Below, in pieces: positions 16,995-64,000 of a stretch of 64,000 nt of DNA. The DNA lies in assembly GCA_958009085.1 (NCBI GenBank), contig OY253679.1, forward strand, positions 124,001-188,000. The letters run 5' to 3'. Source of the stretch: Protoeuglena noctilucae (Eukaryota). Numbering within the stretch: position 1 is the stretch's first letter; each line of letters starts with the position of its first letter. The position numbers and the translations under genes are program-made. A model generated the notes under the pieces. The model ran no database searches. It saw only the letters and a program-made list of their open reading frames with translations, and had not been told where the DNA came from.

Positions 16995-19393
16995 ATGGAC
17001 GGCACTGGCACCCCGCCCCGTCCGCCGGGCAGCGTACCCTCGACGCCCACCCGGGCCTCGCAGCGATCGCAGGCTTCGGCCCAGCCCTCCACGCCGCCCC
17101 GCAAATGGACACCCCGCCGACCCCCCACCCCCGCCAAGACACCAAGGGGCGCCGCGAGTCCACTTATTGAGAACTGCGACGCACCCGGCGACGTGGAGAC
17201 CGCTCCCCTCCCCGCACCGTCCCCCTCGCACCCCGCCACTGCCTCGGCTGTGGCGGTGGGTGCGTTGGGTCATACCCTGGGTGTGGGTCATACCCTGCTG
17301 TGCGAGGTCACTCCCGCCAAGGAGGGACCACGCAGCCCGGCGCTGGCGTTGCCGGTGCTGGAAACCGGTGCGGGGGAGTGGGGCTGGGGTGTGGGAGAGG
17401 GAGAGGGCCTGGGTTTGGAATGGGGGACAAGAATGGGGATTGCGTCAGTGATGGGAGGAGTGGGAGACGAGGGGATGGGAGCGGTTGAGCGGGTGGCAGA
17501 GGGCAGGGGATGGGGCAGTGCAGCGGGGGAGGTGGGAGTGAGTGCATCACGAGTGACGCCTCACAACACGCCACAGCGAGGGGCGATGATGAGGGGGGTG
17601 AGCACAATGCCCGTTAACACCCCAGATCGGGGCGTGGGTGTGAGTGGTGTGCCTGTAGAGGTAAGCACGCCACCTCCTGCCACACCTGAGCGGGGCGTGG
17701 GGGCAGGGGCAAGCACCCCACCCGCTGGCACTCCACAGCGGGGCGTGGGTGTATTGGCAGGTGTGACTACTCCACCTCTCCGCACTCCACAGCGGGGTGC
17801 GAGGGGAAGCGAGAGCACGCCGCCTGTCGGGACGCCTGAGCGGGGCATGGGTGGTGGCGCTGCGGGGTGGGTGGACGCTGGGCAAGGGAGGGGGGGGTTG
17901 GCAGAGGGGGCGACGATGGGGGTGGCGTTCGCTGGGACAGTGGGGGGGCATGGAGGGGTGTCGATGGGGGTGGGGTTAGAAGACGGGGTGGTTGCAATGC
18001 CTGGAGAGGGGTCGCTGGCGAGGGCGGGAGTGGGAGAGGGTGGCGTGGGGGTATTGCCAAAGCATGAAACAGAGGGCATGACAGACAGTGGGGCTGGTGC
18101 GGCAGCGGCGAGCGAGGGTGGGGCGGTAGTTGGGGTTGAGGGCGGGACGCCAGCAAAAACAGAGGGTGGTGTTGTGGCTGAGGATCCGAGAGGGGCGCAG
18201 CTGGGCACAGAAAGTGGGAATGTGGCAGGGGCAGCGGGTGGGTCACAATCGGGGACAGAGGGTGCACGCGAGAGCGGCCGCACACGCCGCCCCCCCGCCC
18301 GCCTGCGCGATATGCTGACAGAGGGGGCGGACGGGGTTTCTGGCAAGAGCGGCGCGCGTGGCAAGCGTGGTTTGGCGAAGGAGTTGCAGGGCCTGGCTCC
18401 CTTTGCCTGGGACTCCCGAAGGTCCCTGCACCCGGTGGGGGCGGCCATGCAGCAGCAGTTCGGGGAAGTGAAGGTGAGGGGGGGTGGGTGTATGGGGTGT
18501 GTGTGAGTGCATGGGTGGGGGCGGCCATGCAGCAGCAGTTCGAGGAAGTGAAGGTGAGGGGGTGGGTGGGTGGCATGTGTAACAGCATGAGTGGAAGAGC
18601 GTCACCGGTGCATGTTGGTATCTCTCTGTTCCTATGCCTCCCATCTCCCATCACCACAACCTCTCGCTCACCCCACCCCACCCCACCCCACATTACCCCC
18701 CCAGGTGACCCTCAAGTCCCTCATCGACGCCGGCGCGATCGTCCCCGGCCCCCGCGCCCTCACCGTCCCCTTCCGCGGCCACGTCATGCACGGCGACCTG
18801 ACAGCCCAGGGAACCGTGCTCTTTCATGGGAAGGAGTTCGCCACCCCCTCCGCCTTCAGCCTCGCCGCGAAACGGGTTCTGACGCCCGAGCGCCAGGCGG
18901 ACGACGGGTGGCGGGCGGTGCACTTCAGGGGGGAGGCGTTGGAGGGGATTCGGCGAAGGCTGGACTTGGATGGGGGCGCGGGGGGGAGGGGCAGGCGGCG
19001 CGGGGTGAAGGGGGAGGGGGGGGAGGAGCAGGTAAGGGGTGGTGGTGGTTGGGGGTGGTGGGGTGCGTGAAGGGGGGGGGGGGGTGATTAGGGGGGTGAG
19101 AGACGGGCGGGCTACGGTTGCTTATGGATGTTACTCAGCCATCGAATCGCAAGAGAGTCCCTGCCCCCGACATACGTGACACATGACACCCCACACACTC
19201 ACTCACCCCCTCCCATCGCCCTTCCCTTCCCCTCTCTTCGCAGTCGCGTGACGCCGCGGATCGCAAGCGGCCAAGAGAGGCAGGCGGGGCAGCGGGGGCG
19301 GAAGTTGGGGTGGCAGAGGGGGGCATAGCGGGCAGCGTGACGGTGGGGGGTGTTGGTAAAGCACAAGCGGTGGGGGGCGGGCAAGAGGCTTAA
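16995..19393 (+). CDS. RAMA-domain protein (MPND N-terminal type) with TPxR-repeat disordered N-terminus
   Basis: Exon 18705-19031 encodes VTLKSLIDAGAIVPGPRALTVPFRGHVMHGDLTAQGTVLFHGKEFATPSAFSLAAKRVLTPERQADDGWRAVHFRGEAL, resembling the MPND RAMA domain. Start and end uncertain: first stop is TAA 19391-19393, close to the gap. Confidence 0.72.
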
Positions 19394-19516
19394 AAGCAGC
19401 GCAAAGGCTGCGGGGACGGGGGCGGCTGCGGAGAGAGCGGCGAAAGGAGCGGGGGCGCGGGTCAAGGGCGCCAAAGTGGGCGGCAATGGCAGCGGTGCGT
19501 GGGTGGGGAGGGCATT

Positions 19517-19716
19517 NNNNNNNNNNNNNNNNNNNNNNNNNNNNNNNNNNNNNNNNNNNNNNNNNNNNNNNNNNNNNNNNNNNNNNNNNNNNNNNNNNNN
19601 NNNNNNNNNNNNNNNNNNNNNNNNNNNNNNNNNNNNNNNNNNNNNNNNNNNNNNNNNNNNNNNNNNNNNNNNNNNNNNNNNNNNNNNNNNNNNNNNNNNN
19701 NNNNNNNNNNNNNNNN
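19517..19716. other. Assembly gap (200 N)
   Basis: Run of exactly 200 N between G-rich low-complexity flanks. Confidence 0.99.
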
Positions 19717-19899
19717 TGTGGGGGTCGGGGGGTCCCTGGCTGAGGCGTGAGGCGCGGGCGCGGCCGGTGGGGCTGGGGGGGATGGGGGGGAGGGGGGGGC
19801 GGTTGAGAGAGGGGTGAGAGAGGGGGGTTGTGGGATGAGAGAGGGGTCCAAGAGTCTAAGTCTAATCAGAGTAACTTTACCCATTAAGAGTGACAATAT

Positions 19900-22800
19900 T
19901 GACACTGAATATGACTCATCCCATCCACGCAATCTCACCCGATGGACCCGTCGGACCTCTCCCTCTCCGCCAGCCCCAGCAGTGCTGAGAGGGGGGGGGC
20001 GGGGCGGCTGCCCCTGGTCGCGGAGTGGGCGGAGTGGGAGGCGTGGGGGTGGGGATGAGGGTGGGGGTGGCTGGCAGCGAGCGATGCCTGCAATGGCGGG
20101 GGATGGGTGGGTTGAATGGCCGGAGTGGGAAGCATGAGTGTTGGGATGAGAGTGACTGGCGGCGATGGATGCCTGCGATGGGAGGGAAGGGGGTGGGTTG
20201 AATGGGTGGGGTGTGATGAGGGGTGTGGAGTGGGGGGCGTGGGTATGTGCGTGGGGGTGAGCACCAGTGCATTCCCAATCACACATCAGAGCAGCCACAC
20301 TCCCACGTCATCAGTTCATTCCCAATCACACACCCAACACAGAACTTCTCCCCACCCCCCTCTCGCCTGTGACACCCCACCTCCCCCTCCCCCTCCCCCC
20401 CCCGGCCCGCGCCTCTTGCCCCGCTCGCCCCCGTGGCCCACCATGTCGGCAGGCAGGGGGCGGGAGGAGCCCTGTTAAATGGAAAGAGAAGAGGGATTGA
20501 GAGTTGAGTGATTGATATAACGAGAGAGGAACCCTCAATGAGATTTGAGTGAGTTTGATGAAGAGGGCATGGGCAGAGATAACGATCGCGATCAAATGAG
20601 AGTGATAAGGGAAAGCACACAGAAAGAATATCAAAAGCAATAACAGAATAGCAATGCGCATCATTCCTCTTCCTATCGCCCCCATCACCGCATCCCACCC
20701 CTCACCTGCAGCGCCACCCCCCCCGCCCCCGCCGCCACCCTCAGCTGCCCATCGCTGCGCCTCCGCAGACCCATCAGCCCGCCCCCCCCCGCTCGCCCCT
20801 CATTGCCCGGCGCGGGCAGGTGCGGCAGCGAAGCGGCAGACCCCGCATTTGACACCCTGCCCGCCCTCTGCCCCCCACCCGCACCCTCGCCCGCTCTACT
20901 GTGATGAGAAGCGGCATGCCCCCATCCCGCGGCGTCCCACTCCCGCGGGTGCGTATGCGATATGGATGGCATGGACTGCATGTGGATGTGTTGTTCGGGC
21001 ATGCTAGGGGCGCGTGCCGACGCGGGGAGGGGCGGGGAGCGGGGGGCGGAGGAGAGGGATGCGGGGGTGTGGGTGCGGATGAGGGATTCGAGGGAATGGA
21101 TGCGGTGGAGGGTGGAGTGGAGGGGGGCTGCGGGGGTGGGGTAAGTGTGGTGGTGGGTGATAGGTGGGGGTGGGGGTGAGTGTAGGGGTGGGGGTGCATG
21201 TGCAGGGGTGCGTGTGGGGTTAGAGGGGGTGGGGATGCGTAGGAAGGAGTGGATGAGTTGCCCTGTGCACAGCTGCTCTCAAGTGCTGCGCTATGCACAA
21301 CACCCAACAATCGCTGCCATACACCATACCTTCCCGCCCATCGCTGCGTTTCTGCATCCCCACCCCCACTCGCCTTGCGCGGCCCTGCCAGGTGATGCTT
21401 CTGCGCTGCTGGGCCCGCTTCCCCTGTCGTGCGCCCACGCCGCCCCCGGGCGGGAGGGGCGCGACGACGATTGGCCCGACACGCCCGGCGCATCGGCGGG
21501 GGCGGCCCTGAGGGGGGGTGGGAAGGGGTGGGAGATGAGGGGCTGTTGAGCGTGTGTGGGGATGTGGAGTGGCGGTGGTAGTGCACCCAGCATCTCATAC
21601 TACCTTCACCGCTCCTGTCACACTTATCCACTCTACACCCCTTCCCCTCACCACCACCACTCCACACCCCATCCCCTCACCTCCTTCCCCCCGGCACCAT
21701 ATCCCGCATTCCTCACCACACCACCACCACTCACACCACCACTCCCAACTAGTCCCACCGTGCTTGCCCCATTCACATCACCCCTCTTCTCACCTCCTCC
21801 CCCCCGGCACCATGTCCTGCGCCCTCAGCCGCATGCGTGCGAGCACGTCATCTGGCAGAGAGGCGCTTTTAGCAGGGACGGCGCGGGCAGCGGGCGACAA
21901 TGGCGGTCGGGGCACGAACAGCGCGGGGCTGGTGGGGGAGAGGGGGGCGTTGGCGACCGATGAGATGCTGACCGCCAAGTGGCGCAGGGACTGGGGGGAG
22001 GGGGAGTTGGTTTGTTTTTTGAATGAGGGTGGTGGTTGGAATGAGAGTGGTGGTTTGGATGAGAATGGCGAGTGGGGATATGCCAGACCTGCACTGCACT
22101 GCAATCCACCACATCACCCTTCACACATCCCCATTCCCTTCTCACCTTGCTCGCGGCCAGCACTGCTGTCCTCACATCATCTCATCCTCACATCAACCCC
22201 CATCATCTCTCAATCTAAATCACCATAAATCACCACCATATATAACTAAATTAGCCAATGCCCATTCACCTTGCTCGCCGCCAGCACCCCCCGTGGCGAC
22301 ACGGCCCCCCCGGCCCCGTCCGCCCCCGCGCCCCCCACCGCCAGCCCCAGCGCCAGATCCGCACGCGACCCCGTGCCGCCCCTCATCGCGTGCAATCGCG
22401 CGAGGGTGGTCACACCAGAAGGGTTTTCGTCGGACAGGCGGCGGCTGAGGCTGCTGGAGCGGGGGGGGCGGTCGGGGGCGGCGCGGGAAGCAGTGGCGGT
22501 GGCCTGGGGGTGGAGAGGGTGGGGGTATGGGTTAGGGTGAGGAGTTGGAATGGCGAGGAGTTGGGATAATACCACCCAGCTTTGCCCACACTAGTCAACC
22601 CACAACGAACACTCACACAAACCAATCACCAACTCACACTCGCATACACCAACCCCACTCTAAGCCACCCCACACCCCACCCCCCCCCCAACCCCACGCA
22701 CCTCCTCCTCCCCCATCACCGCCCTCCGCGAGTCGCCCCCCGTGGCTCCCGCCACCTCCACCGAACTGCTCTGGTCCGAAGCCGCCCCCGCACGCATCCC

Positions 22801-25800
22801 CGCCACCCCCCTTGACTCCCCATCCCCATCCACATCCGTGCTCCCCTCCCCCGCACCCTCCGAAGCACCCACCCAGCTTCCCCCGGCGCCCCGCGGCCCG
22901 ATCCGCGCACCCGACCCGCTTTCCACCACAGGGGACAACCCCGCGGGCCCAACGGCAACCCCATTACCACCCCCACTACCACCTGCACCAATACCCACAC
23001 CCCCACCCCCACCCGCACCACCAGCCCCACTTGCACCGTTCGGCACCGCCGCCCACCCCCTCTGCGGCGGCTGCAGCTCCAGCGACGGCGCCACGCGCCT
23101 CACAGAGACCGCGGAGTCGAGGGAGCGACGCGAGGGCGGGGGGTCCATCGATAGCCTTAGCGTGTCTTGCGAATTACGCCCAGCTGCAGCTGCGGCGGCG
23201 GTGCTTGCGCCCCATGCAAGTGCTGCGTCCGGGGCTGCGGTGTGCACAGCCACAGTGGGGTTAGGGCTATCGGCAGGGGCCACACGCCCGCTACGCCCGT
23301 TGGGGCCCGCCGCCACCGCCACCACCGGCGCAAACGTCATCCCCGCCCCTGTTGCCGTCACTGCTCCTGTTGTTGTTCCGTTTGCTGGGAACGGCGACTC
23401 TCCCGCAATCCCCGGCGCTACCCTGGCGCTCCCCGCGCCCCACCAGGCGCCGCCGGTTATAGCAGCCGGAATGGCGCGTGCGGCCGTGCGCCCCTCCCCG
23501 CCCCCACCCCCTCCCCCCGCACTGCTGTCGTCCCTATCGACACCCGTATCTGTGTTATGGCTGCGATCGTGGTCTCGTTCTCGCCCGTTCCTGCCCTGGG
23601 GCAGCGTGCTGGACCCGTGGCGGGAGGGGGTGAAGGCGTCGGATGGGCGGAGAGCTGAGGTCGTGTCGGGGAGGAGGAGGATGCCGCGGACTGAGAGAGG
23701 GAGAAGGGGTGAGGATGGGGTGAATGTTAATGTGAATGTGGGGTGTTGATGTTAGGTGTAATATGACGTGAGGGGTGTTGATGTGAGGGGTCAGTGGGTG
23801 TGGGGTGTTGCTGTGAGAGGGGGGAGGCGGTGTCGGGGAAGAGGAGGATGCCACGGACTGAGGGGGGAGGGGGATGGGGAGGGTGGGTGATGTGAGGGAT
23901 GGGGTGAATGTGGGGTGTTGATGTGAGGGGTGTTGATGTGAGGGGTGTTGATATGAGAGGTGTTGATGTGAGGTGTCGGGACATCACGACGTGGCACCCC
24001 GCGTCGACGGATGCAAGTGACACTAACATGCGCCTGTCTCTGGCCATTTCCCATCAGTCTCATCTCGCCTGTCTGCGTGCCCACGGACGATGCCGGCCCC
24101 TGGTCCCCCCAGGGCGGTCCGCTCTCAGGGGCAGACACGGAAGGGGAAGGCGCGGCTGGGGGGATGAGAAGGGAGGTGGCAGTGAGGAGTGCTGAGTAGT
24201 GAGAGAGGTGGTAAGTGATTGGTTCAAGCTGCCACCTAATTGCTCCCCGCTCACCTGCTTGGTCCATGGCCTCACTGCCCGTCCACCTGCAGCAGCCTCA
24301 GCACAACCACAGTGTTCTTTGAAGCTGTTCCCTTCCTAGTATCACTGCCCGTCCGCCTGCAGCAGCCTGAGCTTGGCCGCCGTGTCTTTGAAGCTCTCCC
24401 GCCTCCCCAGCACGGGCTTGGGAAGCGGCGCGGCTCCCTCGGCGTCCCCCTCCGCCAGCGACGGCAGCGATGGCACGCGGGTGTCCAAGTGCGTGGGGGA
24501 GGAGAGGTCACCGCCGGAGCTTGGGCGCTTGATGCTCGCGGACACGCCCAGGCGCTTCTGTGGGGGGGAGTGGGGTGGGGTGGGTGGTTAGGTGGATGTT
24601 GGGAGGTGGCTATCGTGTCATGCACATGTGACATATGAAGCGGGGGGTAGATGATGGCAGTCCGTGGCGCTCCGTCCCCCCCTCTCTACTTCGACAATTG
24701 CAATACAAACAGTGCAGGACAGCTCTCGCCTGCGACAGGCTCTTGAGCGCCTTGAGTCGGTCCGTCTCCGTCACACGCACGGGCTCGGCAGCCCCAGCGC
24801 TACCACCAGCAGCTGAGGTGGTGGCGCCGATCTCGGCGTTGTCAGTGTCGATCCCAGCGGTTGCGATAGCGTTGGGGCTGGTCGAGGCGAGATAAGGGCT
24901 GGGGGCGGTGAGGTCGTGGTCGTCTTTTTCAAATGGGTCGCCCAGTGCGTCCTCGGTGAGACTCGAATTCGGGATCACCGCGTGGTCCTCGTGGTAAATC
25001 TGGGGAGATGTGAAAAAGAGAATCCAGGTGAGAGTCGAAGGGGGGGACCGCAGACGCGACGCAACAGGGTGAGGGGAGACAAAAGACAGAGGCCAGTGCC
25101 AACAGCGGACTCCTAGTCCCTGACCAATTGACATGAGCATTCGTGCCAGCATCGCACATCTAGCAACTCGTGCGTCCATCGTGCTCTGCCCCGGTGTGCA
25201 TGGCAACCCCCCTCTCGCCTGCGACCCCCTTCGGCGGAAGGAGAGGCTCCGCAGCGCCGCCTCCTTGGTCCCCTGCGACACGGGACCGACCGACGCGGCC
25301 GGGGCGGGGCGGGGCGGCGCTTCGCCGGACGGCGCACCCTTCAGTGACCGCAGCCGCAGCAGCCCCGGGCGTGCGGGGGGCGAGGAGTCCTGCTCCCCCG
25401 GGCTCTCCGCGTCTTGTGACGCTTCGGATTCCTCCTCAGGGTCCCGCTGCTGCGACGCGGACACGCCCAGGCGCCGGGAGCGGAACGACGCGATCGCTTG
25501 CAAAGGGGCGGCGGGGGTGGGGCGCGAGGCGGGGGTGCGGGAGGAGGGGGAGCGGTCGGGGGAGAGGGGGGAGGACTCGCGCGCGGTCACGAACGACGGG
25601 TCGGCTGCGGGGTGGCGGATGGGAAGGTTGAGTTGGCACATGGCACGTGGCGACAATCAGTGGCGCTAGCTGCCGGCGCAGCCCTGGCCCACCTTGCGCG
25701 GGTCCCGCGCGCGCGGCTGGGCTCAGGAGCGACGCGGGGCGCGGGCGCGCGTCGCCGTGGGAGGTTGGCGCGGTGGGCGAGGGGGAGGGGGAGGGGCTCG

Positions 25801-26400
25801 AGCGGGCGACGGGCGGCGCGTCAGCGCCGGTCGCGAGGAAGGGGGGCTGGCGGTCGAGAGCGGACGGGTGGCGGGCCCCGGGAATCACGGGAGTTCCGGA
25901 AACGGGGTCTGTCTGGGCGGAGGGGGCCTGGCGCTTGCCCTTGCTGCTGCTGGACCGCTTCTTGCGCGGCTTGGGGGGGTCGATGCGGTCGTGGATGAAG
26001 CGCGCGAGGGCTCTGCGGGAGAGGAAAAACGTTTAGATGTGAAAGGATGCGACGGCGGGGTGCGCGGCGCCGCAGGGGAGGCTGGGCCGGCGCAGGCGCC
26101 CTAGCTGTCGTCGCACGGAGCCAACGCCGCTCCGGTGAGGTCCGGAAGGTCCCTCCGCTGCACGCGGCATGCGCAGTAGGCGATTGTCACCTAAGGGCGA
26201 TGAGACCGAGGATCCACGGCGCGGCGCGAGCGGCGAGCTGTCCCAGCGGCTGGGGCGGGGACGGGCCCATCGGACGTGCGGAGGGGGGCGCGTCCTCTCC
26301 TGGACTCGTACGCTGCGGAAACAACGTAAGTACAGGAAGTCCCCCGGCGCATCGCGGGGCTCGTGCACGGCCGCCGCGCGCGGGTCAGGCCTCTCGCAAG
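19900..26400 (-). CDS. Long multi-exon gene for an uncharacterised low-complexity Ser/Pro/Gly-rich protein; both ends uncertain
   Basis: Phase-consistent exons, e.g. ALARFIHDRIDPPKPRKKRSS (about 26014-25694), ...LRSLSFRRRGSQ|IYHEDH...LKSLSQ|KRLGVSAS, VRGILLLPD..., APLHSTLHRIHSLESLIR. GC donors at 25218, 24729, 24068 and 21373. No domain recognised. Confidence 0.6.
23740..23975 (+). repeat. Intronic minisatellite, unit about GGGGTGTTGATGTGA (15 bp)
   Basis: About four near-tandem units at 23912-23972 plus scattered copies at about 23740 and 23773. Confidence 0.8.
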
Positions 26401-27451
26401 GGTGGGAAAGCGCAAAGCCGCTGCAGCGCTGCGGCTGGCCTAGAAAGGAGAAACGCCATGGGTGACTTTCCACGAAAAAGGACAACGCGACAACTGGGAA
26501 ATGGGAGGCCGAAGAGGCCAGCGCGCCGCGGCCAACTCCGGCACGCTCGCATGCGTGGAATGGCAGCCCTGGTGCAGGGACAAGCGGGGCGCAAGGGCAG
26601 GACTGAGACGAGCGTGGGCCCGAGCGCGTTGCACGCTGTCTACAGCGCCCGGAAGAGCCAACGGGCCAACAACCCCGGGACCGCGCGCTCCTGCGAAAAG
26701 GTCCGCGCGTTCACCAAAGCCGGCGAGGCGAGTAAGTAAAGAGTTGATTATCCCCGCAGGATCCACGGTGGAAACGGGGGTGCGTGCGAGCGATTGGTGC
26801 GCGGGATCGCGGCGTGTCGCTCACCAAGTTTCCTGACGATCCCTCAAGATAAAGCTGTGAACGGGACAATCAGCTCATCATCCTCCCCTCGGCGAGCGGC
26901 CGAGCCAACTCTCAAGGCGAGCCAATTTTCTGACGTCAGAATTCCTGTTGCTTTTTAAGAACAAAGCCGATTTCGACGCGGGCTTATGCGCGGAGTGCGC
27001 GTTCATGCGTCTGTCGAATCGGCAGGGCGCGCGGTCGGACCACCAGCCCCACCTATCACCCGCACTTGGCCCGTGCGCGAGCGCTACCCACATCTTGGCA
27101 TGAAGCGGCCGGCGGCGGCAAAGGCGGGCGCGGCTGAAAAGGTGAATGGCCTCGCCGTTGCTCCGAGACAGCCACGGACGCTCTGCCTGCGTCCGCTCGA
27201 CGCTGTGCGCGTAGCAATTCTTCGGAGCTCTTCCATCGCCGCCCTGCTGATTTTCTCCACCGCCGCGCGAGCGTTGGGGCTTTGCGGTCGCGTATCGATA
27301 TCGCGCCGCGTTGTTGCAAGACCAAGGAGCCCGTAGTGCAACGACCGCACGTCCCTGGGTTTGTGCGGGAGGCATGGCGCCCTGCGAGGGCCCGCCAGGT
27401 CTCCCACGCTTTCTCAGCGACACGCTGCGAACTCAAACGCAGGAGAAGGCG

Positions 27452-30400
27452 ATGCGTCGGAGCATGGAGGCCGGGCCCTCGGACGCGGGGGCGCCGAGCG
27501 AGGAGTGGCAGTGCCCCGCGTGCACGTTCCGCAACGCGTCCGACGCCGCCCGCTGCGACATGTGCGGGACGTCCAGAGGTGTGTCGGATCGACGCGCGCG
27601 CGCGAGGCCGGCGTCGCTCTGCCGCGTGCGAAGGGGGGCGCAGGTCGCATCGCGATTCCCTCGCCGCTGCAGGATCCGGGGCCGGTCCCCGCGTCTCGGA
27701 GGACCGCAGCGACGACGATTACGAAATGACATACGAATCGGACGGTGAGCGGCGATGGCGAGAGGTCGCGCTCGCCCCGCAGGCCCCATAAGAGCCCGGA
27801 ATGCAGCCATCCCCGCCTGCCGCGCCACGCCCCGCCACGCCCCGCCCTCTCTTGTTCCCAGAATCTGCGGAAGCGGGATCGGAGCCGGATGAGGAGCCGG
27901 ACAGCGACAGCGGCAGCGAGAGCGAGAGCGTGGATGCCGGTGGAGGAAAGGCGGTTGCACCCACCCCTGCCTTCCAATGCGCCGCGTGCCACGCCGCCTG
28001 CCCGTCCATGTCCCACGTATTGCGCACGTCGCAATCGCGGCAACTCTGCTGCGTGCCCTGGTGAGACGCCCCACGCTTCTGGCCCGGCCATTCCCCTTCA
28101 CTCTCCGTCTCCCCATCGCAACACCATGCAACAGCAGCTGGTGCCTGCCTTTATACCCACCCTGTTTCCCCATGCTCTCGTTCACTTTCTCTCACCCACT
28201 TACCCGCTCCCTGCCCCACCTGCCCTCACCCCCTCACCACCCCACCACCCCACCACCTCACCCCCTCACCCACCCCCTCCCCCTCCCCAGCCTCGTCCGC
28301 GCCTGCGAGTCCGCTCTTCGCAACACCGTCCGACTGGCAGACGCCCACCCTATCCCCGAAGACCCCACTACGTCAGACGCACCACCAACAACCACCACTC
28401 CCGCCTCTGCCACTAAGAAACCCGGCGCTGCCTTAGTCAAGTCCGCAACACCCAAGTCCGCACCCACCACCCCCGCACACGCAATCAATGCACCCGCACC
28501 CTCGCCCGCATCTGCCAGCAAGGCAGCGGCCGCCGACGGCCCCCCTCCCGGCCCCTTGCGCCCCACAGCGCCCGGCCTGACCCTCGCATCGCTGCAGTCG
28601 CTCTTCTGCAACCCAGCGGACAACACGCCGCTGTCAGCTAACGACGTGCTCGCCATCGGCGGCGCGGGGCTGTTGCTCCATGCCTGTGCGCTCCTGCGCC
28701 CTCTGTCAGAACGTGCTGTGCTGGACCAGTCATCTACCGGGCGCCTGATTGCGAGCGTGTGGCAGCTGCGTGCGCTGTCGGGCGTGGATGCCGAGCCGGA
28801 CGCGGTTGCGTTGCTGGAGGGGGAGTGGGCGCAGGGGCTGCGGGGGCGGGCGGGGGTGGCGGCGGGGGCGGCGAGCGGGGCGGGGGCGGGGGAGGGTGCT
28901 GGGGTGGCGGCGGGGGGTGCGGGTGCGGGTGGTGTGAAGGGGGGTGCGCGTGGTGGGGGTGGGACGGGATATGAGCCTGAGAGGGACAGCAAAGACACGG
29001 CGGTGCTGATGACGATGCGCAAGATGCAGAAGCTGCAGCGGGACACGGGTGAGTGAGTGACTGAGTGATGGCAGTGGGTGAGTGAGTGGCGATGGCGAGA
29101 GGTGGCGGGGTGCAGCGCTCACAGCCAAGTGTCGCTGGCTATCACCCTCGTTGCACAGCTCATATTCTTCTTATTACTCTTATCCAATATAACTCTTCCC
29201 ATATCCTCTCTATTCAGACCGTGTGATGGCGGAGGTGCTGAAGGAGGTCAACGACGCGTTGGACGAGCTCACGGGGCTGTACCCGGAGGCACCCAGGTGC
29301 GATGAGAGTCGTTGCTTGATTTTGATCACATACTACGATCGCATATACTGTGATTGCACACTCGTGTGTGCTTACATTGGCTTGCATTCACTTACCGTTT
29401 GACAATCCCATTCATCCCTTTCCAATCTACCATTTCCAAAACCCACCATTCCCTCTCCTCTCCTCTCCTTTCCCACAGATGGGACTGTTCCGACATCGAC
29501 CTGCCCCTCCCCGCATTGGCCTCGCTGTTATGCGGGGGCGTCCCTCAAGTCCTCTCCTCCCTCCTCTCTTGCTCCATGGCAGCGATTGCTGAGCGCATTT
29601 CTCTCGTCCGGCGCGCTCTGACGCTCCTGCGTGCTTGCGCCAGCCACCGCCCGCTTCTGCCGATCGTGGGGCTGCCCGAGGGGGCGCTGCGGTGTGCGGT
29701 GGGGAGCGCGGTGGCGGCGAGGGGCCTCGCGGATTGGGGTGAGAGGTTTTGGGGGGAATGGGGGGAATGCGAGGGTCGATTGGTGGTGGGTATCATGGGA
29801 TGGGGGGTGGGGGGGTCGGGAGATCGTTTGGGGGATGGTGGATGGATGGTTGGTATCACACACTTTATCCCATACCAACCCAATTGCATGTATCTATTCT
29901 AATCCGATCACAAGTATCAACTCGACCCCGCACCCCTTCCCCTCCACCCCCTCCACCATTCCAGGCCCTTCCGTGATGGCGCGCCTGTCCGAGCGCGGTC
30001 AGCAGGCGGCCATGCTCCTGAAAATGCCGTGCGGGGATTCGGAGGAGGAGATGGGGATGCACGTGTGCGCGGGTGAGATATGAGTGTTTGTTGGGAAGTA
30101 AGATAGAGATAAGAGAGATGGGGATGCACGGTGTGCAGGTGGGTGTGGGTGCATGTGGGCGTGGGTAGCAGTGCGGGTGTGGGTGCATGTGCGGGTGAGT
30201 GTGGATAGCAAGCGCACCTCACCCCCACCCCTCTGCCCATCCAGCTAACACTCAAACTGACCACATATGACCACTGCCCCATTTACTACCCCATCCGCTC
30301 CCCCATTTGACAGTCAAACTGACCACATATTACCACTGCCTCATCCACTCCTTCCCCATCCGCTCCCCCCTCTCCCCACCCTCGCAGCCGACGTCAACAG

Positions 30401-45560: not shown

Positions 45561-45914
45561 GACTGCAATCGTGCACCAAAGATGTCACGGAGAGCAAGAG
45601 CTAGGCGCGGTGGTGCCGCGTCGATGCAGTTCTACTGTTCTTGACGAGTCCGTGCAGCCGGCCTCGTTTACCAGAGGCCAGGCCTTGCAGAGAGCCAATG
45701 ATTTGAAATGCTAGAGGATGACGAAGAGCTGGGCGCCGCGGCACGGTCAGCCGAGCGATAAACCCTACCCTAAGGCTGCACCATTTTGGTCGTCCGTTCG
45801 CTCGGCAAGATAGCCAGTCCTGCCCATTCTGTGATACTCCTCGTTGAAGTGCTCATAAAAGTAGCGCCCTGGAAAGCTTCACACACGGGCTTCGGGCACA
45901 GCTGAGCAGGAGCC

Positions 45915-47323: not shown

Positions 47324-47768
47324 GGACTTCACACGTTCGCTGCGGAAGCGATTGCCGACGCGAGTGAGGGCAATGCGTGTAACCCGGCGGCCGGGTCAAA
47401 CTCGCCGGGTCAAACTGCCAGCTAGGCATCTGACACCCGCAGCGACGCAACGCGGCGCTTACGCGGCTCCAGCGCGGACCCGAGAGCCATTGCGAATGAA
47501 TCGCTCGCTCCTGTGGCATCTGCAGAGCTAGATACCCCTCCTTGACTGTCTAACAGGCGTTCACGGGTGACCCGTGGCCAGGCGTTATCGGTGAGAGCGC
47601 GGGGCCGACTCGACCGATATGGCCGCACCAAACCTCGTTATATATGTTGGTTTTACATGTCGCGCTCATCGGGGCCAAAGGTGCGTGCGCGTTTGTGTCC
47701 CCTTGCTGGCGCCACGTCAACGTCGCTCCCCTAGACCCGCCCGCAGGCCCCCGCTGCGCTGCGTCAGG

Positions 47769-50100: not shown

Positions 50101-50502
50101 AGCTGGGTGTGATGGGATGTGAAGAGGGGTGCTCGTGGCAAGGTGACATGCCAGGTGTCATGGACAGGTCGAACGAACCAAGAGAACAAAAAGCGAGACG
50201 GGGTAGTAGAAAGCGAGACTACAGGATGCGAAGATTGGCGCTGCGTTTGACTCAGTTGCGCATAGCGAGTAGCTGCCCTAGAGCCGTCCGTGTTCACGTG
50301 GCTGTCTGTTCGTCCGTTCAACGCTCTGCGAACTGACACGCTGCTCAGTGTACTAGAAGTGAAGTTAAAGAGGTAGTGTAACTTCTATACATCACTCAAA
50401 CCTGATGCCTGCCACACCGCTACGTCACTCCGTCCCCCCCAATGTCGGGGACTCCACCAGTCACTGTCGAACTCTCACTCCACAACCAGAGCGCTCAAAC
50501 CC

Positions 50503-51928: not shown

Positions 51929-52672
51929 CTATCTACCCACACCCGTTGCCCTCGGCCGAAATCGCCGCGCCGAAAGGCGCCGTGCGCGGTGTGCCTCAGG
52001 CCGCGAAAGTGGTGGCTTGCCTATCCCAGCCTGCAAGAGTGGCCCGCGCAACCCCGAGTCGCCTGCGTTGTGGGCACCAGTTTCTGCAACACCACAGCAG
52101 CGGCAAGGTACCGAAACCCAAGTCGGCCCTGACGCCAGTCGGACGCGCCCTGCCAGGAGAGCTCTTCCCGGCAAGCCCGACCCAGCCAGTGACATTGCTA
52201 CGCTCCCGTGTCTCGTTCGTGGCGTGTCGGGGTGCAGGGCCGGCGTGGCAAGGCGATCGGGGGGAATCCCAGCGCAGGGAGCGACCGGCAGGCGAGTGCG
52301 GCTTCCCCGGTCGCGGACGAGGAACGTGGGGCGTCATGAGACCGCGCGGCGGTCCTCTGGGTTCGCCTCCTCGCTCGCATCCGCCGAGCTAGGCGAAGGC
52401 GATGTGCGCGACGCTTTCGTTGCCTCACACGGCCCTCGCCGGCGTTCTCCTCCGGCGATGTCGTGACAATGCCTTGGAGACGTGCAGAGGGAGGCGTTCG
52501 CGCCCGGCCGGGGTCCCCCGGACTCGTGGCATCCCGGCAGACGCTGCCCGGGCCCTCATCGTGAGACGCGTGCGAGTCAACCACGCCGATCGGCGCCAGA
52601 CTCTTCCTCGTCCACCTCGCGTTCCGCAGGGCGACTTTCTGGAGTCTGGGAGCGGGAGGGGAGCGCGCAGAG

Positions 52673-53372
52673 ATGGCCGCCAGGCTCGGGCTGTTCCGCG
52701 GCCTCAAGCAGCGGATTTTTGACTCGTACACCAAGAGCCTGGACAAGAACTTGCGGGCGCTGGGTCTGGTGAGCGGCGGCGCGCCCGGCGTGAGCGGGAG
52801 GAGAGGGTGGGACCGTCAGCGAGCGCGTCCGAGCGCGTCCCCGCGCTCCCGCACCCGCAGCGGTACGACGATCTGCTGGACCCGCTTCAGGACCCCGACG
52901 TGGAGGTCGCGCTGCGGCGCATCCCGGCCGCGGAGGTCGAGGGCCGCAACGCGCGCCTCCGCCGGGCGCTCAACCTCTCGATGAAGAAGGAGGAGCTGCC
53001 GGAGGACATGCAGGTGGGTCTTGCGAGATGGGCGCTCGCGAGAGATTAGGGATCGTGGTCGCAGGTGACCAGCAGAGTGCCGACCAGCTCGGGATCCACT
53101 GCGCCCCGCCTTTTCTCCCGTCCTGCAGGCCATGCAGACGCCCTTCATGCACTACCTGCTTCCTGAGCTGAAGAAAGTGCGGATGGAGAACCGGGAGGCC
53201 AAGGTGAGAGGGCGATTGCTCGCGTGTGGGTCGCAAGGGGCCTGCGTGTGCACTGATTCAACCCCTAGCGCCGCACAGTTCGTTCTGAGTTCACTGTTCG
53301 ATACCAGTTATCCCTGTCGTTCGCTCGCAGGCCCTCAACACCCCCCGTGCTTATCGCCGGAGCCTCCCGTGA
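52673..53372 (+). CDS. QCR7: Cytochrome bc1 complex subunit 7 (14 kDa)
   Basis: LRALGL|RYDDLLDPLQDPDVEVALRRIPAAEVEGRNARLRRALNLSMKKEELPEDMQ|AMQTPFMHYL...ENREAK|ALNTPRAYRRSLP*. Confidence 0.93.
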
Positions 53373-53758
53373 CGCGCCCCTGCGTGCTGGGCTGCCCGGA
53401 TGGCTCTAGGCGGATAGGCCGGCTGCCCGCGGTCCACTTCCCCTCCATCAAGACTTGGGAGTCTAGACCAGGGCTCCGCAGCGTTTGAAGGACTGGCACT
53501 CGACAGAAACCTTGTCCAGCGGCCGGTAGCAGCGTTATCGACCCGGTCGACGCCCTCCTGGGAGCAGAGCGTGCCGCATTTGCATCTTCAGATCGTCACG
53601 CACAGCTTCCTCGGCCGAAACTGCCATAATGTGCTTGTGAATCGCTTTTCCGACCCACGCAAGCGTGCTTGGCGCCCGTATCCGATCGCGCGAGATCTGA
53701 TTTCGGGCTGAGGGCGCACCCGTCGCGGGTCTAGGGCCTGTCCGGGCCGGGGCTCGGG

Positions 53759-58816
<5,058 letters not shown>

Positions 58817-59091
58817 ATGCAGCGACGCGGCAGGGGCGCGCGAGGAGAGACGCTCGCGCGCACTCAGGGCTGCGCCAGTTGAATTGAATTTTGCCAGTTT
58901 GTGGCCCGGCTGGCCGCGCCTTCTGGGGCTGACGCTGCCGTACCGGCTCTCTCGTCTCTCGTGACGCTGGCGTCGACCCCGCCCGCGAGCTCCCGTCCAC
59001 GCATCGGCTGGATAAAGCACCGCTCCAGGTTCCCCCGGCATATCGAGTCCCCGGGCGCTCTCTTTTGCTCGATTCGCGTGACGAGTTCGCG

Positions 59092-61653
59092 ATGACTCTC
59101 TGCGGCGTTACCACCGCGCTGCCCCTGGCCCGCAATGGCGCATGGGCCCGCAGCACCTCTCGCCGCTCCAGCGCGGGTGAGGTGGCGGGGGAGGTGGCGA
59201 CGGGCGCGTTCGGTAGTAACGAGCGCGTAGGAGCCGCGCGGGGCCCGGCGCGCCCCGCTCGTCGCCCCCCGCGATGGCGGAAGCCGGACGACTTTGATGG
59301 ACCCGCCGAGCGGGCTTTGGGGGCGTCCGCAGCGCGCGCGGGCCATACACGGTGCTTTTCCCGACATGCATTGTCCCGGTAGCCACTTGGGAGGTCGTGA
59401 TGTCCTTTCTCGCCGGCGGACTCGCGCTCGCCTCGTTGGGATCCTTCCGGAGCCGTGCCACGCGACCCCCGATCCCCGGGGCGACCCTGCCGATGCTGGA
59501 GGCGTGTTTACGATCCCGTGCTGCGTGCGGCGCCCCCGCTGCGCCCTTAACGTTGCCGGGCGCGCCCATGCGCGACCAGCGCGCTGGATGCCGCACGACG
59601 GGCCTCCGACCGCCTCCCCACCTGGACGCCCCCGCCCCTCCCCGCCCGCAGTCGTCCGCGCCGTGAAGGACAAGCAGGCGATCGCAGCCGTCACCGCCGC
59701 GGCGCTCCTCTCCGCCCCCTCGGCCAAGGCCGACTCGATCGGCGGTGCGTGTCTCCCTCCCGCCGCGCCCCCCGGTCCCCGCCCGCCCCTTTCCGGCATC
59801 TATCCGAACTCTCCTCGTTCCCGCGCACCTCCCTGCAGACGCCGTGGACTCGATCACGGCGGGCGTGCAGACGGCGGGCGATGCGGCGCGCCTGGCTGTC
59901 GACTCGGCCAAGGCTGCCCTGGAGGTCGCCAAGCAGGCCTACGAGGCTGCGGTGCCCGTGGTGACCCCCTACGTGAAGCAGGCCGCGGAGGTGGCGGCCC
60001 CGGTGGTACAGGAGAGCGTGAAGCTGGGGACCAAGGTGGCGGGGGACGCCTTCAGCGCGGTCGGTCCCTCTCTGGATGAGGCGCTCAAGCAGGCGAGGGC
60101 TGTGGTGTGTGTGTTTGTTGGGATGTGCGGGTGGTTGTGATCAGGTTGGGAAGCGGTGAGGACTGGAAGCGGTGAGTTCGTTGGCATCTGCTCTGTGTGA
60201 GAGATGGTGCTGGCTCAGTCTCTCTCCATCTCACACCCACCCACAACCCACCTCAACAACCTCACAACCCCCCCTCCCTCTCCCACCCCAGGCCACCGGC
60301 GCCGTGGCCGGCCTGGGCATCGACGACAAGCTGGTGGACAGCGTGGCCACTGCCGCCAAGCCCGTTGTCTCTGCCGCGGGTACCGTCGCCGGCAGCGCCG
60401 CCGAGGTCCTCGCCACCTCCAGCCCCGTCACTGCTGCCGAGTACGTCGCGGTTGCCGCCCTGGGTGTCTACCTCACCCCCTCGCTCTTCGGCCTGCTGTT
60501 CGACTTGCTTCGCGGGTACCGGGGCGACCTCACCGCCACCCTGGCAGTGGACAAGCTCCAGTCGGACCGGTCCGCGGTGCTGGTGGACGTTCGTGCTGCG
60601 AAGGAGAAGGACGTGGCTGGCCTGCCCGACGTCCCTGGGTCGGCGGCCGCGCGTTTACTGGCCGTGGAGTTCGCCACCACCGAGGACCGGCAGCTGCGCA
60701 ACCAGCTGCGCAACCCCACGGCGGTCGAGACCACCGTCACGGCGCTGCAGGTGAATATCGGGGGGGGGGGGGGGGGGATGGTGGTGGATGGGTGGTGGTA
60801 GTGCGTGGGGTGGTGTGGGGGGGGTGCGCGACGGTGGGCAGTGTGTGTTGTTGTTAAGGGCGGCACTCCATCGCTCCATCGTTAGTTTTACTCGATTGCC
60901 GCTACCTCTTGCCACCCCACTCCCACACTCGCCTGTACCCCACTCACCCCACGCAACCCCCACCTCTACTTACCCCCGCTCAACCCCACCCCATTCATCC
61001 CCCCCCCCCCCCCCCAACCCCAGATCGCCAACCTGAAGAAGGTCGCCAAGGGCTCCCCCATCCTTCTGCTGGACCAGAACGGCGGCCAGTCCAAGTCGGT
61101 GGCTCGCGAGCTCTCTCGCCTCGGCTTCAGTCAGGTGTATGTCGTGGAGGACGGCTTCAAGGGGTGGGTGGCGTCCAAGCTGGCCACCAAGGAGGGGGGG
61201 TTCACCACCACGGGTGAGTGTTATGGATATATGTGTGATTAGCCACGTGTATGTATATATGTGTGATAAGTCAGGGTGTATGTGGTCGAGGATGGCTTCA
61301 GGGGGTGGGTGGCCTCCAAGCTGGCCACGAAAGAGGGGGGGTTCACCACCACGGATGAGTTATTGCAATAGCGATAGCGATAAGTGTGAGAGATGTTCAG
61401 GGAGTGCTCACCACCATGGGTGAGGGAGGGTGATGGCGACAGCTGGAATGGTGGCGATAACTGTGGGCGGCACCCACCTCGCTCCCTCCCCACTATTACC
61501 CAAACCAACATCTCTCATCTCCTCCCCCCATTCGCAGTCCTCCCCGGCAGCACCATCTTCGGCCGCCCGGGCACCTCGGTGGTCCCCGCCACCTACGACG
61601 CCAGCAAGGCGAGCGCCAACGGCAAGAGGGCACTCCCCTCTCCGCGCAAGTGA
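59092..61653 (+). CDS. CAS: Thylakoid calcium-sensing receptor CAS (rhodanese-like)
   Basis: Bipartite transit peptide ending SAKA, TM segment, RGYRGDLT...LVDVRAAKEKDVAGLP...LRNPTAVETTVTALQ|IANLKKVAKGSPILLLD...VARELSRLGFSQVYVVEDGFKGWVASKL. GC donor at 60093. Confidence 0.9.
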
Positions 61654-61798
61654 AGTAAACGACTCGCTCATGCGCAATCGATTTGGGCTAGTCGTGTGCC
61701 TATGATGACGCTACCCGCGGCTGCAGTGGTGTGGCATGGCATCGACTGTCCCCTTGCGTTGCGATGCGATGCCCTGTGCTCTGCCTCTGTAGCTCACG

Positions 61799-61826
61799 CT
61801 CTCTCTCTCTCTCTCTCTGCTCTCTC
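61799..61826 (+). repeat. (CT)n microsatellite in CAS 3' region
   Basis: About 10 CT units followed by a short degenerate run. Confidence 0.85.
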
Positions 61827-62085
61827 TTACTCTAGCGTTTGAAGACTTGAGAAGAAAGCTGGTTGTACTTTGCGAGCAAAGTACAACGTCGATACCAAGT
61901 GACATAACAACTTTCAAAACGCATTGCCTGGCATTATCTCTGCTAGTGAAAGAGTCTGGTAGTTTGTGGATATCACGCTGTGCTGCCATTGTCCCCTCTG
62001 CCACCCCTCCACCCACTGCCTCTCTCACTCCCCACCTCCCTCCCTCTCAATCCCATCACCCCACCCCACCCCACCCCACCCCCCC

Positions 62086-64000
62086 TCACTCCCCCCCCTC
62101 CCTCTCCCCCCTCCTCTCCCCCCTCCCCACCCTCTCCAGCCACATTGGCTTCCCCCCCACATCCGAGTGACCCCCCACCCCTCTCTTCCCAATCGCTGAC
62201 AAACTCTCCTCCAATTGCCGAGCAAACTGCTGCGTGGCGCTGCTCTGGTGGTCGTGGCTGGGGGGGATGACCTGGGGTAGACAGGGATGTGTGTGGATGG
62301 AATGAAACCATACTGTTAATTTGAAGTCAGTAACACTGCAGTGGCTAAGACAACCACCCCCACCCCCACCCTCCCTCACCATGCCCCCCAGGTTCATCGC
62401 GTTTGCCGCCTTCGCCTTGCTCTTCTTCTGTTCCGATAGCCTCGACTGGGCATAACTGCGAATATTCTCCGTCTCAAATGCGATGCGGAATCTCTGGCGG
62501 GCCTCGCGGGTGCAGGAGATGGCGCCGGTAGTGAGGTCGACGCGGGAGGGGGTGAGCTGGGGAGGGGCGAGAGATGGGGGGCATTGATGCTATATACAAT
62601 GTAACCGATCATACCAGTCACTCATTCTATTACCAGTATTACTATCATTAGCAGTCCACCACTCACCACCACCTCCGTGAGATGCGACACCTTGAAGCCC
62701 CGGTCGGACATCAGCCACCCATCACATCATCACCATAACCACTATAATTTATCATCATAATTATCATTATCACCACCCCTCCATCCCCACTCACCACCAC
62801 CTCCGTCCGATGCGACACCTTGAAGCCCCGGTCCGACAGGACGTCGATCAACACCTCGCACGCCAGCGGCTGGTCGTCCCAGAACGGGGCCGTGCTGGTG
62901 TATTCGAAAAACCCGGCCAGCGACGATTTCAAAACCCCCGGCAGCACCTCCTCTTCAATGACAGACACCACTTGGTCCAGCAAAGGGCGGTGGTCGGTGT
63001 AGTAGCGGTCCAGCCGCTGCACCAGGCTCTGGCGGGACTGCATTGGGGAAAGTAAGCAATATCTTTGAGTGTAATAGATATTATATGTTTGAAATGTTTA
63101 ATAGCAATAGCGGTCCAAGCGCTGCAACAGGCTCCGAGAGGACTGGGAGGGAGGGGGGGACAGGGAGGAAGAGATTAGGTTATACTATGATTATAATTAC
63201 TATAATGGTTAACACAAAAGATCTACATTACTAAATATTTTATATTTATACAATATTTATAACATTTATTGTTTAGGTTATGATACTATGATAGCACCCC
63301 CCACTTCCTTGGCCAGCGGCAGGTGCGCCAGCGCTCAGTAGGTCCGTTGTAAGTGACAACCATTACATATGACAGTATAATAACATACATTCACTATAAA
63401 TATAACACCCTCACCTTGGTGACCACTTCCTTGGCCAGCGGCAGGTGCGCCAGCGCTCGGTAGGTCCCCTCTAAGAGATCCAGGGAGCTCTGGTATCGTA
63501 GCTCTTGCGCAATTTGCTGTTGGCACGACTCCAGGGATCCCATGGCGTCGATCAGGCAGAAGGGGAAGTGCTGGGGGGTTGGGACAGGGGTAACAGGTGA
63601 TACGTCATAGCTATAACATCTAAAATTAAGTGATAGTAAAAGTAAATCAGTAACAAACGATAATGACATAAAATAACAAAGTAAAGTGATACGTGACCAA
63701 TAGATACCACCGCGTCTCGCCTGCATGAGCCTCAGCAGCGTGCCGTAGTGCTGCTCGAATATCAGGCACCAAACAGTCACATGATTCATAGATAACATGA
63801 CCCATACATACAACACCGTTCTCTCGCCTGCATGAGACGTAGCAGTGTCCCGTAGTGTTGTTTGAATATCAGGTACCGCTGCTGGGCCTTCTCTATGTCC
63901 ACGTCCGTAGCACGAACCTCCTCTGAGGAACAAAGCACGATAGTAAATGGTGTCAAGAAGAATGTTCTTATAAGAAAGAAGGCAACCAAGCATCATTGGA
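62086..64000 (-). CDS. 3' part of an adenylate-kinase-like protein with C-terminal extension; 5' end outside window
   Basis: RATDVDIEKAQQRYLIFKQHY, HFPFCLIDAMGSLESCQQQIAQELRYQSSLDL, RQSLVQRLDRY, LIDVLSDRGF, PSRVDLTTGAI resemble, from memory, an atypical NMP-kinase family. The P-loop is not in the window. GC donor at 63827. Confidence 0.6.

Follow-up and report, generated by a model that had tools for sequence, protein, structure and literature searches.

Introners are transposable elements that create introns and leave direct repeats at the splice sites; they are known in marine algae. Polymerase-theta end joining and synthesis-dependent microhomology-mediated end joining (SD-MMEJ) insert short patches, usually below 30-50 nt, that are copied from within about 100-200 bp of a break in direct or inverted (snap-back) orientation. 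In a potato RdRp gene, an intron was reportedly gained by tandem duplication of a proto-splice-site sequence. Tandem duplication of exon sequence with a proto-splice site accounts for intron gains and new intron positions in Drosophila, according to an excerpt of one study (PMC2891723). In human F7, the first 37-bp unit of the intron 7 minisatellite spans the exon 7/intron boundary (PMC1557585, in excerpt), and at an integration site of Ostreococcus tauri a 518-bp direct target duplication accompanies an 83-bp insert of unknown origin (excerpt of PMC8002553). Here we describe exon edges that recur as copies, or echoes, inside the adjacent intron, in a 64,000-nt window of contig OY253679.1 of Protoeuglena noctilucae; the window is the whole stretch of DNA that was analysed, and all statistics come from it. 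The echoes extend the known local-duplication phenomena; in the F7 and proto-splice-site cases the repeats either lie head to tail or give rise to an additional intron. A full-text literature search that did not cover the Emiliania huxleyi genome paper turned up no account of exon-edge echoes that are spaced and pervasive in introns.

The initial annotation of the window had listed 16 such pairs, of varied divergence. Local alignment found 16/16 of them again, at offsets of 26-167 nt, with identities that run from 100% (16/16, 26/26 and 27/27 positions) down to about 75% (115/144 and 37/47 are among the lowest). Two pairs outside that list were added (21781-21820/21668-21707 and 22266-22287/22142-22163), as well as a third copy of the exon end at 61213, around 61399-61424. 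We scanned the window for ungapped local high-scoring segment pairs (HSPs) at offsets of 12-400 nt, which gave 200 direct HSPs, and used as mirror control the neighbouring sequence reversed and not complemented, so that local composition is kept. With non-overlapping arms, there were 53 direct versus 7 mirror HSPs at a score of at least 20, and 20 versus 0 at 28 or more. After complexity filtering, the direct, inverted and mirror counts stood at 67, 2 and 4 for scores of at least 16 and at 39, 1 and 0 for scores of at least 20. Chance or low-complexity matching as the source of the pairs is ruled out by the mirror control.

The link to junctions was likewise borne out when exon edges were aligned with controls across the 64 kb: 30 nt of each exon edge plus 8 nt of intron were compared with their own intron and with every other intron of the same class. 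In the 9 loci with low-complexity introns, 23 of 152 junction ends matched their own intron better than all 75 others, with about 2 expected; in the other loci the own intron was best of all for 1 of 92. An own-intron score of at least 16 was reached by 15/152 junction ends in the low-complexity-intron loci versus 0/92 elsewhere (Fisher P=0.0007).

Single DNA contigs of metagenome X5, whose study differs from that of the DNA runs of organism A (a coded name), align to 56761-57509, 61009-61745, 62134-63330 and 63429-64000 without differences or gaps. They include both copies for 57077/57160, 57250/57292, 61129/61269, 62660/62788, 63003/63108 and 63715/63822. Because single contigs from an independent metagenome hold both copies with 0 differences, the echo pairs are not an assembly artefact. 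At 63301/63423 the metagenome contigs break between the copies, as is expected in a short-read graph from a 36-nt exact repeat.

Read on the sense strand, a pair has the layout A-S-A'-R: the exon edge with its splice consensus (A), a spacer (S), the echo (A') and the rest of the intron (R). The copied segment measures 16-135 nt and consists of 12-85 nt from the end or the start of the exon together with the splice consensus; the echo lies in the same orientation, 26-167 nt away, and 15 of the 17 copies span the junction. The spacer is 15-102 nt long in 16 of the 17 pairs. It is missing only at 43330-43381 (minus strand), the sole perfect head-to-tail case: an acceptor-type pair in which a 26-nt unit, composed of 11 nt of intron end with CAG and 15 nt of exon start, occurs twice with 26/26 identical positions. 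Its exon is predicted only by our splice-aware hidden Markov model (HMM), and Tandem Repeats Finder reports the repeat with period 26, 2.1 copies and 100% matches.

That perfect repeat is what ordinary tandem duplication would leave: replication slippage across the exon-intron boundary, minisatellite-like, with the intronic part of the second unit decaying or being replaced fast. Tandem arrays are abundant in the same introns, and a unit that straddles the junction leaves the mRNA unchanged and would survive. We nevertheless find it distinctly unlikely as the origin of the echoes, given that in 14 of the 16 spacer-bearing pairs the spacer is not repeated. Judged against dinucleotide shuffles, S resembles the sequence after A' at P<=0.01 in 2/16 pairs, and at P 0.075-0.09 in three more. 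The two are 62660/62788 (P=0.005) and 63715/63822 (P=0.01), with identities of 0.60 and 0.75 beyond the boundary, and both speak for a tandem origin. In the first (minus strand), the exon end plus GTGAGTG at 62788-62838 has its echo at 62660-62710 (48/51 identical) across a 77-nt spacer that weakly recurs past the echo. In the second (minus strand), the exon end with a GC donor, GCGAGA, at 63822-63877 is echoed at 63715-63770 (47/56); the likeness runs about 25 nt further into the intron, and blastn aligns 80 nt at 79.5%.

Against slippage stand also the young pairs, which leave no time for intronic decay. In the FtsH-like gene (plus strand), the segment 55179-55205, with the final 19 nt of an exon followed by GTGAGGGG, recurs without a mismatch (27/27) at 55282-55308, across a 76-nt G/T-rich spacer unrelated to the sequence past the echo (P=0.61). 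At 18435-18490 (plus strand), an exon end plus GTGAGG (the HMM exon ends at 18473, and the next exon carries a RAMA domain) is echoed at 18515-18572 after a 24-nt spacer, with 55/58 identical positions. The aligned segments show little extra divergence in their intron part, with 22/203 mismatches versus 49/547 in the exon part. Over the 20 nt past the boundaries, identity is at background (mean 0.41, 95th percentile 0.60) on the exon side of 17/17 pairs and on the intron side of 15/17, also for pairs that are 94-100% identical inside A. Since the spacer is not repeated and identity falls to background past the boundaries, most echoes are discrete patches and not halves of a decayed tandem unit. 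Of the two processes that the initial annotation had offered, duplication or templated insertion, templated or patch-like copying is thus favoured over tandem duplication, with 1/17 pairs head to tail and the spacer recurring in 2/16.

The comparison with F7 follows the same line. As in the excerpt of that report (PMC1557585), an exon end and its 5' splice site are repeated in the adjoining intron, where the F7 pseudo-donors downstream are identical; the splice site lies inside the unit in 15/17 of our pairs. F7 is there a single head-to-tail locus, whereas we count at least 17 junctions in 64 kb, with acceptor edges among them and 16/17 pairs spaced; the two copies are adjacent in 1/17, and the whole unit recurs in 2/16.

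In composition the spacers resemble ordinary 5' intron sequence, rich in G and T and poor in C. Their best non-self matches elsewhere in the 64-kb window reach 19.9-33.4 bits (15 spacers), a span that 60 random intronic controls also cover. With no match above control in the window, the spacer as a member of a multi-copy repeat or introner family was rejected. Introners resemble the echoes in that introns are altered by insertions leaving direct repeats at splice sites; unlike them, the echoes show no element family, have heterogeneous spacers, and the duplicated target is far longer than a transposon target-site duplication.

Intron gain by duplication of a proto-splice site was also discarded, as the two copies do not delimit an intron: the echo sits inside a longer one, which runs on 60-180 nt past it to a separate acceptor. 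Both processes duplicate local sequence including a splice site and turn a former exon copy into intron. Proto-splice-site gain places a new intron between the copies, whereas here a pre-existing intron is extended and the mRNA is unchanged: growth, not gain. Summed by hand, the added sequence amounts to about 950 nt for the echoes alone and about 1,830 nt for echoes plus spacers, out of 17.2 kb of intron. The lengthening of introns by a local duplication process, as proposed in the initial annotation, is upheld in direct orientation (39 direct versus 1 inverted HSPs at a score of at least 20), and that the process is ongoing is supported by identities from 100% to about 75%, as expected for such a process. 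Intron lengthening and cryptic simplicity are poorly documented at the level of single events, and the window offers a series of such events across that range.

We propose that the echoes are probably neutral scars of local DNA copying in the low-complexity introns of some genes, with break repair or template switching as the most likely source. Sharp boundaries, an unrelated spacer, direct orientation and a continuum of ages all argue for one-step scars of this kind. Each echo would arise in a single step, when a broken intron or a replication fork stalled within it is repaired, or through replication template switching. In one version, a short patch copied from the neighbouring exon edge would be inserted between S and R; in another, filler S would be inserted at a staggered break, and the filled-in overhangs would duplicate the target A. 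Copies landing in exons would be removed by selection. Intronic ones would persist as long as the splicing machinery keeps to the site contiguous with the exon, which matches F7 intron 7, where experiments showed identical downstream pseudo-donors to be silent (PMC1557585, as excerpted). The exon copy stays under coding selection while the echo decays. The same activity would yield purely intronic duplications and short tandem arrays, so that introns grow and become cryptically simple.

The version with filler and target duplication has an experimental precedent in NHEJ-like junctions of O. tauri, another marine alga (excerpt of PMC8002553). The scars described there and our pairs share the order of target, unrelated insert and target in direct orientation, with sharp boundaries in ours as in a break-repair scar; the duplications span tens to hundreds of bp, with a filler of 55-83 bp there. 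Unlike those experimental plasmid insertions into a green alga, the pairs contain no foreign DNA: their inserts, the candidate filler, are 15-102 nt of intron-like, G/T-rich sequence. The echoes also recall polymerase-theta and SD-MMEJ insertions, which are short nearby patches with sharp boundaries too; the echoes differ from them in the near lack of inverted copies and in patch lengths of up to 135 nt.

Several points weigh against neutral scars of break repair or template switching. The search for alleles or orthologues without an echo yielded none: a metagenome scan with the FtsH-like exon 55905-56084 gave 80 loci, all at 71% identity or less and none of them from a close relative. Local inverted copies are nearly absent (1-2 versus 39-67 direct), a misfit with polymerase-theta-type repair as usually described. 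The window is small, at 64 kb; outside 44-64 kb the gene models come from the HMM, and the strands of 19.7-26 kb and 36-45 kb are uncertain, being set by HMM score only. Random placement that spares the mRNA predicts 10.7 junction events, and 17 are observed (P=0.0096). A patch model with random sources expects 12.3 intronic, 8.0 spanning and 6.8 exon-internal sources, against 10, 15 and 2 observed (chi-square P=0.007). Finally, the copy boundary on the intron side clusters at +4 to +9, which a purely random scar model leaves unexplained.

Both null tests were run on 17 junction events, without 23657 (of uncertain strand) and the weak case 43927, and on 10 intronic events of the same class; the intronic set includes the arrays 61222 and 23909, nested in junction events, and excludes 2854 and 49334, which belong to the other class. 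If a half-constrained pair stayed detectable twice as long, this could lie behind much of the excess of 17 over 10.7. Detectability is no explanation of the difference between spanning and exon-internal sources (P=0.003). The intron part of A has a median of 8 nt, and its mean fraction is 0.28 where 0.5 is expected (P=0.0009); it measures at most 9 nt in 9/15 pairs versus 3.4 expected (P=0.0016). Copies thus tend to end just past the splice consensus, where the low-complexity tract also begins. Donor edges are involved 13 times and acceptor edges 5 times (P=0.10).

These boundaries speak for a copying process anchored at the splice site, or at the border between exon and low-complexity tract, in which exon ends would be preferentially recopied and introns would grow from their ends; we regard it as rather unlikely. 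The short intron part of the copied segment fits it, as do the junction-spanning sources, 15 versus 2 exon-internal ones, and the stop of all three copies of the 61213 exon end at GTGAG or ATGAG. Two forms of it, each of them doubtful in our estimate, are a recurrent break just past the 5' splice consensus and synthesis primed by microhomology with GTGAG-like decoys. For the latter, the donor-like motifs of these introns, doubled relative to shuffles (94 versus 40 +/- 5), would supply the microhomology, but in the present sequence any microhomology is absorbed into the aligned copy. The sample, moreover, is small (15-17 events in one window), the junction positions come partly from HMM gene models, and with the low-complexity tract starting right after the consensus, anchoring at the splice site and anchoring at a slippage-prone edge are inseparable. 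Nor is a splice site required, as about 10 duplications are purely intronic. We suggest, tentatively, that anchored recopying makes introns grow outward from both ends and so builds a G/T-rich 5' half with donor motifs and a mirroring C-rich 3' half. The non-random copy boundary may point to a link of splice-site sequence with DNA breakage or repair.

Splice junctions are therefore not the only place of copying. The initial annotation had described echoes of exon ends; duplications at junctions are in excess, 17 versus 10.7, and the process is not confined to them, in view of the purely intronic events. Filtering left 34 events: 18 that span or abut a junction (the 16 listed and 2 new), 1 with a weak exon-internal source (43927/44038), 10 intronic and 5 exon-to-exon, the last in repeat-containing proteins. 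There were 0 filtered events in the 14.9 kb of intergenic DNA of the window. Tandem Repeats Finder arrays number 38 in the 17.2 kb of low-complexity introns (2.2/kb), a density 7-8 times that found elsewhere, with 2 arrays in 6.5 kb of other introns (0.31/kb) and 4 in 14.9 kb of intergenic DNA (0.27/kb). The echoes are thus one part of a more general local-duplication activity, which is restricted to introns and, among the 21 intron-bearing loci, to 9. Intron growth proceeds here by local direct copying, in the introns of some genes and not, as far as the window goes, in intergenic DNA.

The two kinds of introns are split by gene and not by region: 9 loci with long low-complexity introns and 12 with ordinary short ones are interleaved in the window, and intergenic DNA resembles the ordinary class. 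In the loci at 17333-33600, 36189-45365 and 53759-63900, the 5' half of the introns is rich in G and T and the 3' half is rich in C. The initial annotation had restricted the echoes to genes with low-complexity, CpG-poor introns. The first term holds, with all junction events in those 9 loci; the second applies to whole introns only and is largely compositional. Over whole introns, observed/expected (o/e) CpG spans 0.43-0.66 for the 9 loci with echoes and 0.78-1.31 for the remaining 12. Measured against a local 30-nt expectation, it comes to 0.90 for the echo-bearing class and 1.04 for other introns. The apparent depletion arises mostly because G-rich 5' halves and C-rich 3' halves lie apart. 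CpG depletion as decay through methylation was dropped, given the rise of o/e to 0.90 under the local expectation.

Donor-like motifs in the low-complexity introns number 94 on the sense and 121 on the antisense strand, both above the 40 +/- 5 of shuffles; an excess on both strands means that the two intron halves are roughly reverse complements. Predicted folds of these introns are on average 1.1 standard deviations more stable than dinucleotide shuffles, with 15/70 at z<-2, compared with 0.09 and 4/40 in other introns. The low-complexity architecture may be a cause of the copying, as slippage- or break-prone DNA, or its product, as accumulated degenerate echoes of splice signals.

The exon copy was told from the echo by RNA in three cases and elsewhere by single-exon Pfam matches or, failing these, the splice-aware HMM. 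In the rhodanese-domain gene (plus strand), the intron 61214-61537 is spliced in 3/3 RNA runs, which makes 61129-61219 the exon end plus GTGAGT and the echo at 61269-61360 intronic (83/92 identical); this donor-type pair is a triple, its partial third copy near 61399-61424 coming from an HSP at offset 206. In RNA run X10, the shorter sides of the joints 56720|56933 and 57430|57594 measure 165 and 144 letters, the lengths of the predicted exons 56936-57100 and 57289-57432; these block lengths imply that the authentic donor 57100 and acceptor 57289 are used. The first belongs to a donor-type pair with a GC donor, in which the exon end plus GCGAGG at 57077-57134 is echoed at 57160-57215 (plus strand, 52/61) and the exon has an AAA match. 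The second belongs to an acceptor-side pair: 57292-57307, 3 nt inside the exon, recurs in the intron at 57250-57265 (plus strand, 16/16), in an exon with an AAA_lid_3 match. In all three RNA-supported cases (61213, 57100 and 57289) the authentic site is used, that is the upstream donor or the downstream acceptor; RNA contigs drop rare isoforms. The F7 excerpt (PMC1557585) likewise has the most upstream donor chosen and the pseudo-donors silent, as in our RNA-supported donor cases.

Of the 49 exon-part mismatches, 12, 13 and 24 affect codon positions 1, 2 and 3 (P=0.014; 16 pairs, without 63715/63822 and 23657/23824). A third-position excess is the pattern expected if the exon copy gains only synonymous changes while the echo drifts. 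The exon end at 63822-63877 and its echo at 63715-63770 both translate into the 11-residue stretch QHYGTLLRLMQ, although 5 codons differ, CGT versus AGG among them. Over 16 codons, 6/9 of their differences sit at third positions, which fits an old event with synonymous drift of the exon, yet is striking.

The creation of decoy or alternative splice sites, also put forward in the initial annotation, is well founded as to decoys. We examined 12 donor-type pairs and mapped the echo site in 10; for the 30048 pair the script settled on a different decoy, 122 nt downstream. Of the 10 mapped echoes, 9 carry a GT or GC donor that equals or exceeds the authentic one in matrix score, 4 of them with the higher value. 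The donor of the 61213 echo is mutated to AT. The pair 63822/63715, outside the script's mapped set, has GCGAGA in both copies. Strong decoys planted 26-167 nt from the authentic sites thus provide a natural test bed for how a spliceosome that also handles GC-AG introns chooses among identical sites.

One could suppose that selection keeps the echoes as decoy binding sites for U1 or U2AF, as splicing enhancers or as alternative splice sites. The preservation of GT or GC donors, some of them stronger than the authentic, would suit this idea, and intron retention and unusual splicing are pervasive in E. huxleyi according to an excerpt of PMC4028052. We hold it to be highly improbable. Use of the echo donor would shift the frame in 9/10 mapped pairs (10/11 aligned pairs, counting the other decoy of 30048), and the only in-frame echo, that of 61213, has no GT. 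The echoes form a continuum of decay, and the one at 63301-63356 has no splice site at all. Where they are readable, RNA contigs, which drop rare isoforms, show authentic junctions only. In the same E. huxleyi excerpt (PMC4028052), alternate donors are rare, with 5 events in 535 introns inspected.

A duplicated or mutually exclusive exon was considered separately and rejected: the distance to the echo donor is a multiple of 3 in 1/11 aligned pairs, whose echo has AT and not GT, and at 63715/63822 there is no AG in the spacer. The HMM placed spurious micro-exons inside echoes at 55665-55679 and 24255-24296. Automated gene finding in this genome will probably be led astray by echoes.

The other pairs lie on both strands. 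Among donor-type pairs on the plus strand, the exon end plus GTGAGA at 30048-30094 (the exon ends at 30072) has its echo at 30115-30159 (37/47 identical), in a gene with RanBP zinc-finger and UQ_con exons. An exon end plus GTGAGGGGC at 31988-32008 (exon end 31999) recurs at 32076-32096 after a 67-nt spacer (19/21); the exon at 31812-31997 matches UQ_con. At 55503-55607, an exon end (55533) and 74 nt of intron are echoed at 55649-55755 (88/111; own-intron score 35.5). An acceptor-type pair of the same strand consists of the exon start 31101-31153 (the exon starts at 31100) and its upstream intronic echo 30980-31033, with 45/54 identical positions and an own-intron score of 16.5 compared with at best 11 elsewhere.

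On the minus strand, the exon end plus GTGA at 24342-24395 is copied at 24272-24326 after a 15-nt spacer (46/55), and the echo's donor score is 5.6 versus 3.2 for the authentic site. The acceptor-type pair 63003-63040, CAG plus exon start, has its echo at 63108-63145 (31/38). At 63423-63478 the source is internal to the exon, ending 8 nt short of the donor 63415, and its intronic echo lacking a splice site is 51/56 identical. Both donor-type pairs added to the initial list are on this strand as well: the exon end plus GTGAGAAG at 21781-21820, with the echo at 21668-21707 (73-nt spacer, HSP score 25, offset 113; strand by HMM score only), and the exon end plus GTGA at 22266-22287, with the echo at 22142-22163 (102-nt spacer, HSP score 19.5, offset 124). 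The pair 23657-23791/23824-23961, of uncertain strand, lies within arrays of the 15-nt unit GGGGTGTTGATGTGA (115/144 identical); it scores 28 against its own intron and at most 10.5 against other introns. It crosses a predicted junction in either strand model, the acceptor 23690/23691 on the minus strand or the donor 23664/23665 on the plus strand.

The window is eukaryotic nuclear DNA with 52-70% GC per 2 kb and a single 200-N gap at 19517-19716. Of the words sampled from 54001-64000, a fraction of 0.98-0.99 is present in the organism A DNA runs, 0.92-0.94 in marine metagenomes from the separate study and 0.35-0.40 in marine metatranscriptomes. RNA contigs aligned to 44001-64000 give 49 joints, of which we read 15; after shifts, 15/15 correspond to plus-strand introns, 10 GT-AG and 5 GC-AG. 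The GC-AG introns confirmed by RNA are 52292-52629, 57433-57595, 58064-58219, 58430-58594 and 60093-60291, all on the plus strand. E. huxleyi has a genome of 65% GC with many GC-AG introns in the excerpt of PMC4028052, figures that the GC content and GC-AG introns here resemble.

Gene models were built with the splice-aware HMM, trained on RNA-confirmed exons and introns, which combines a 3-periodic Markov exon model with donor and acceptor matrices, permits GT or GC donors and keeps the reading frame across introns. Its output contains the internal exons confirmed for the FtsH-like gene (53759-58813) and for the rhodanese-domain gene (59652-61649). The resulting working annotation comprises 22 loci, 130 introns and 152 exons. 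Single-exon Pfam matches support the strand at 18705-19031 (RAMA, plus), 27464-31997 (RanBP zinc finger and UQ_con, plus) and 44020-44226 (EGF, minus); further ones are Usp, Patatin, UCR_14kD, AAA/AAA_lid_3/Peptidase_M41 and Rhodanese.

A single strong local inverted repeat occurs in the window, 48258-48292/48321-48355, with a score of 25 and an arm of 35 nt. Its first arm is part of predicted exon 48229-48321, its second begins with the initial bases of the next intron, and the two could form a hairpin across the donor.

The RAMA exon at 18705-19031 (plus strand; PF18755, E=3.6e-17) sits within a spliced eukaryotic gene, and the name of the family reflects its association with prokaryotic restriction-methylase systems. 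The predicted products of three paralogous genes, at 5206-6583 (plus), 11416-12569 (plus) and 34136-35616 (minus), are glycine-rich proteins in which the motif GNNLINQA recurs. In these genes, units of exon plus intron, about 180-220 bp long, form tandem repeats, and the predicted translations of 5206-6583 and 11416-12569 have an identical N-terminal part.

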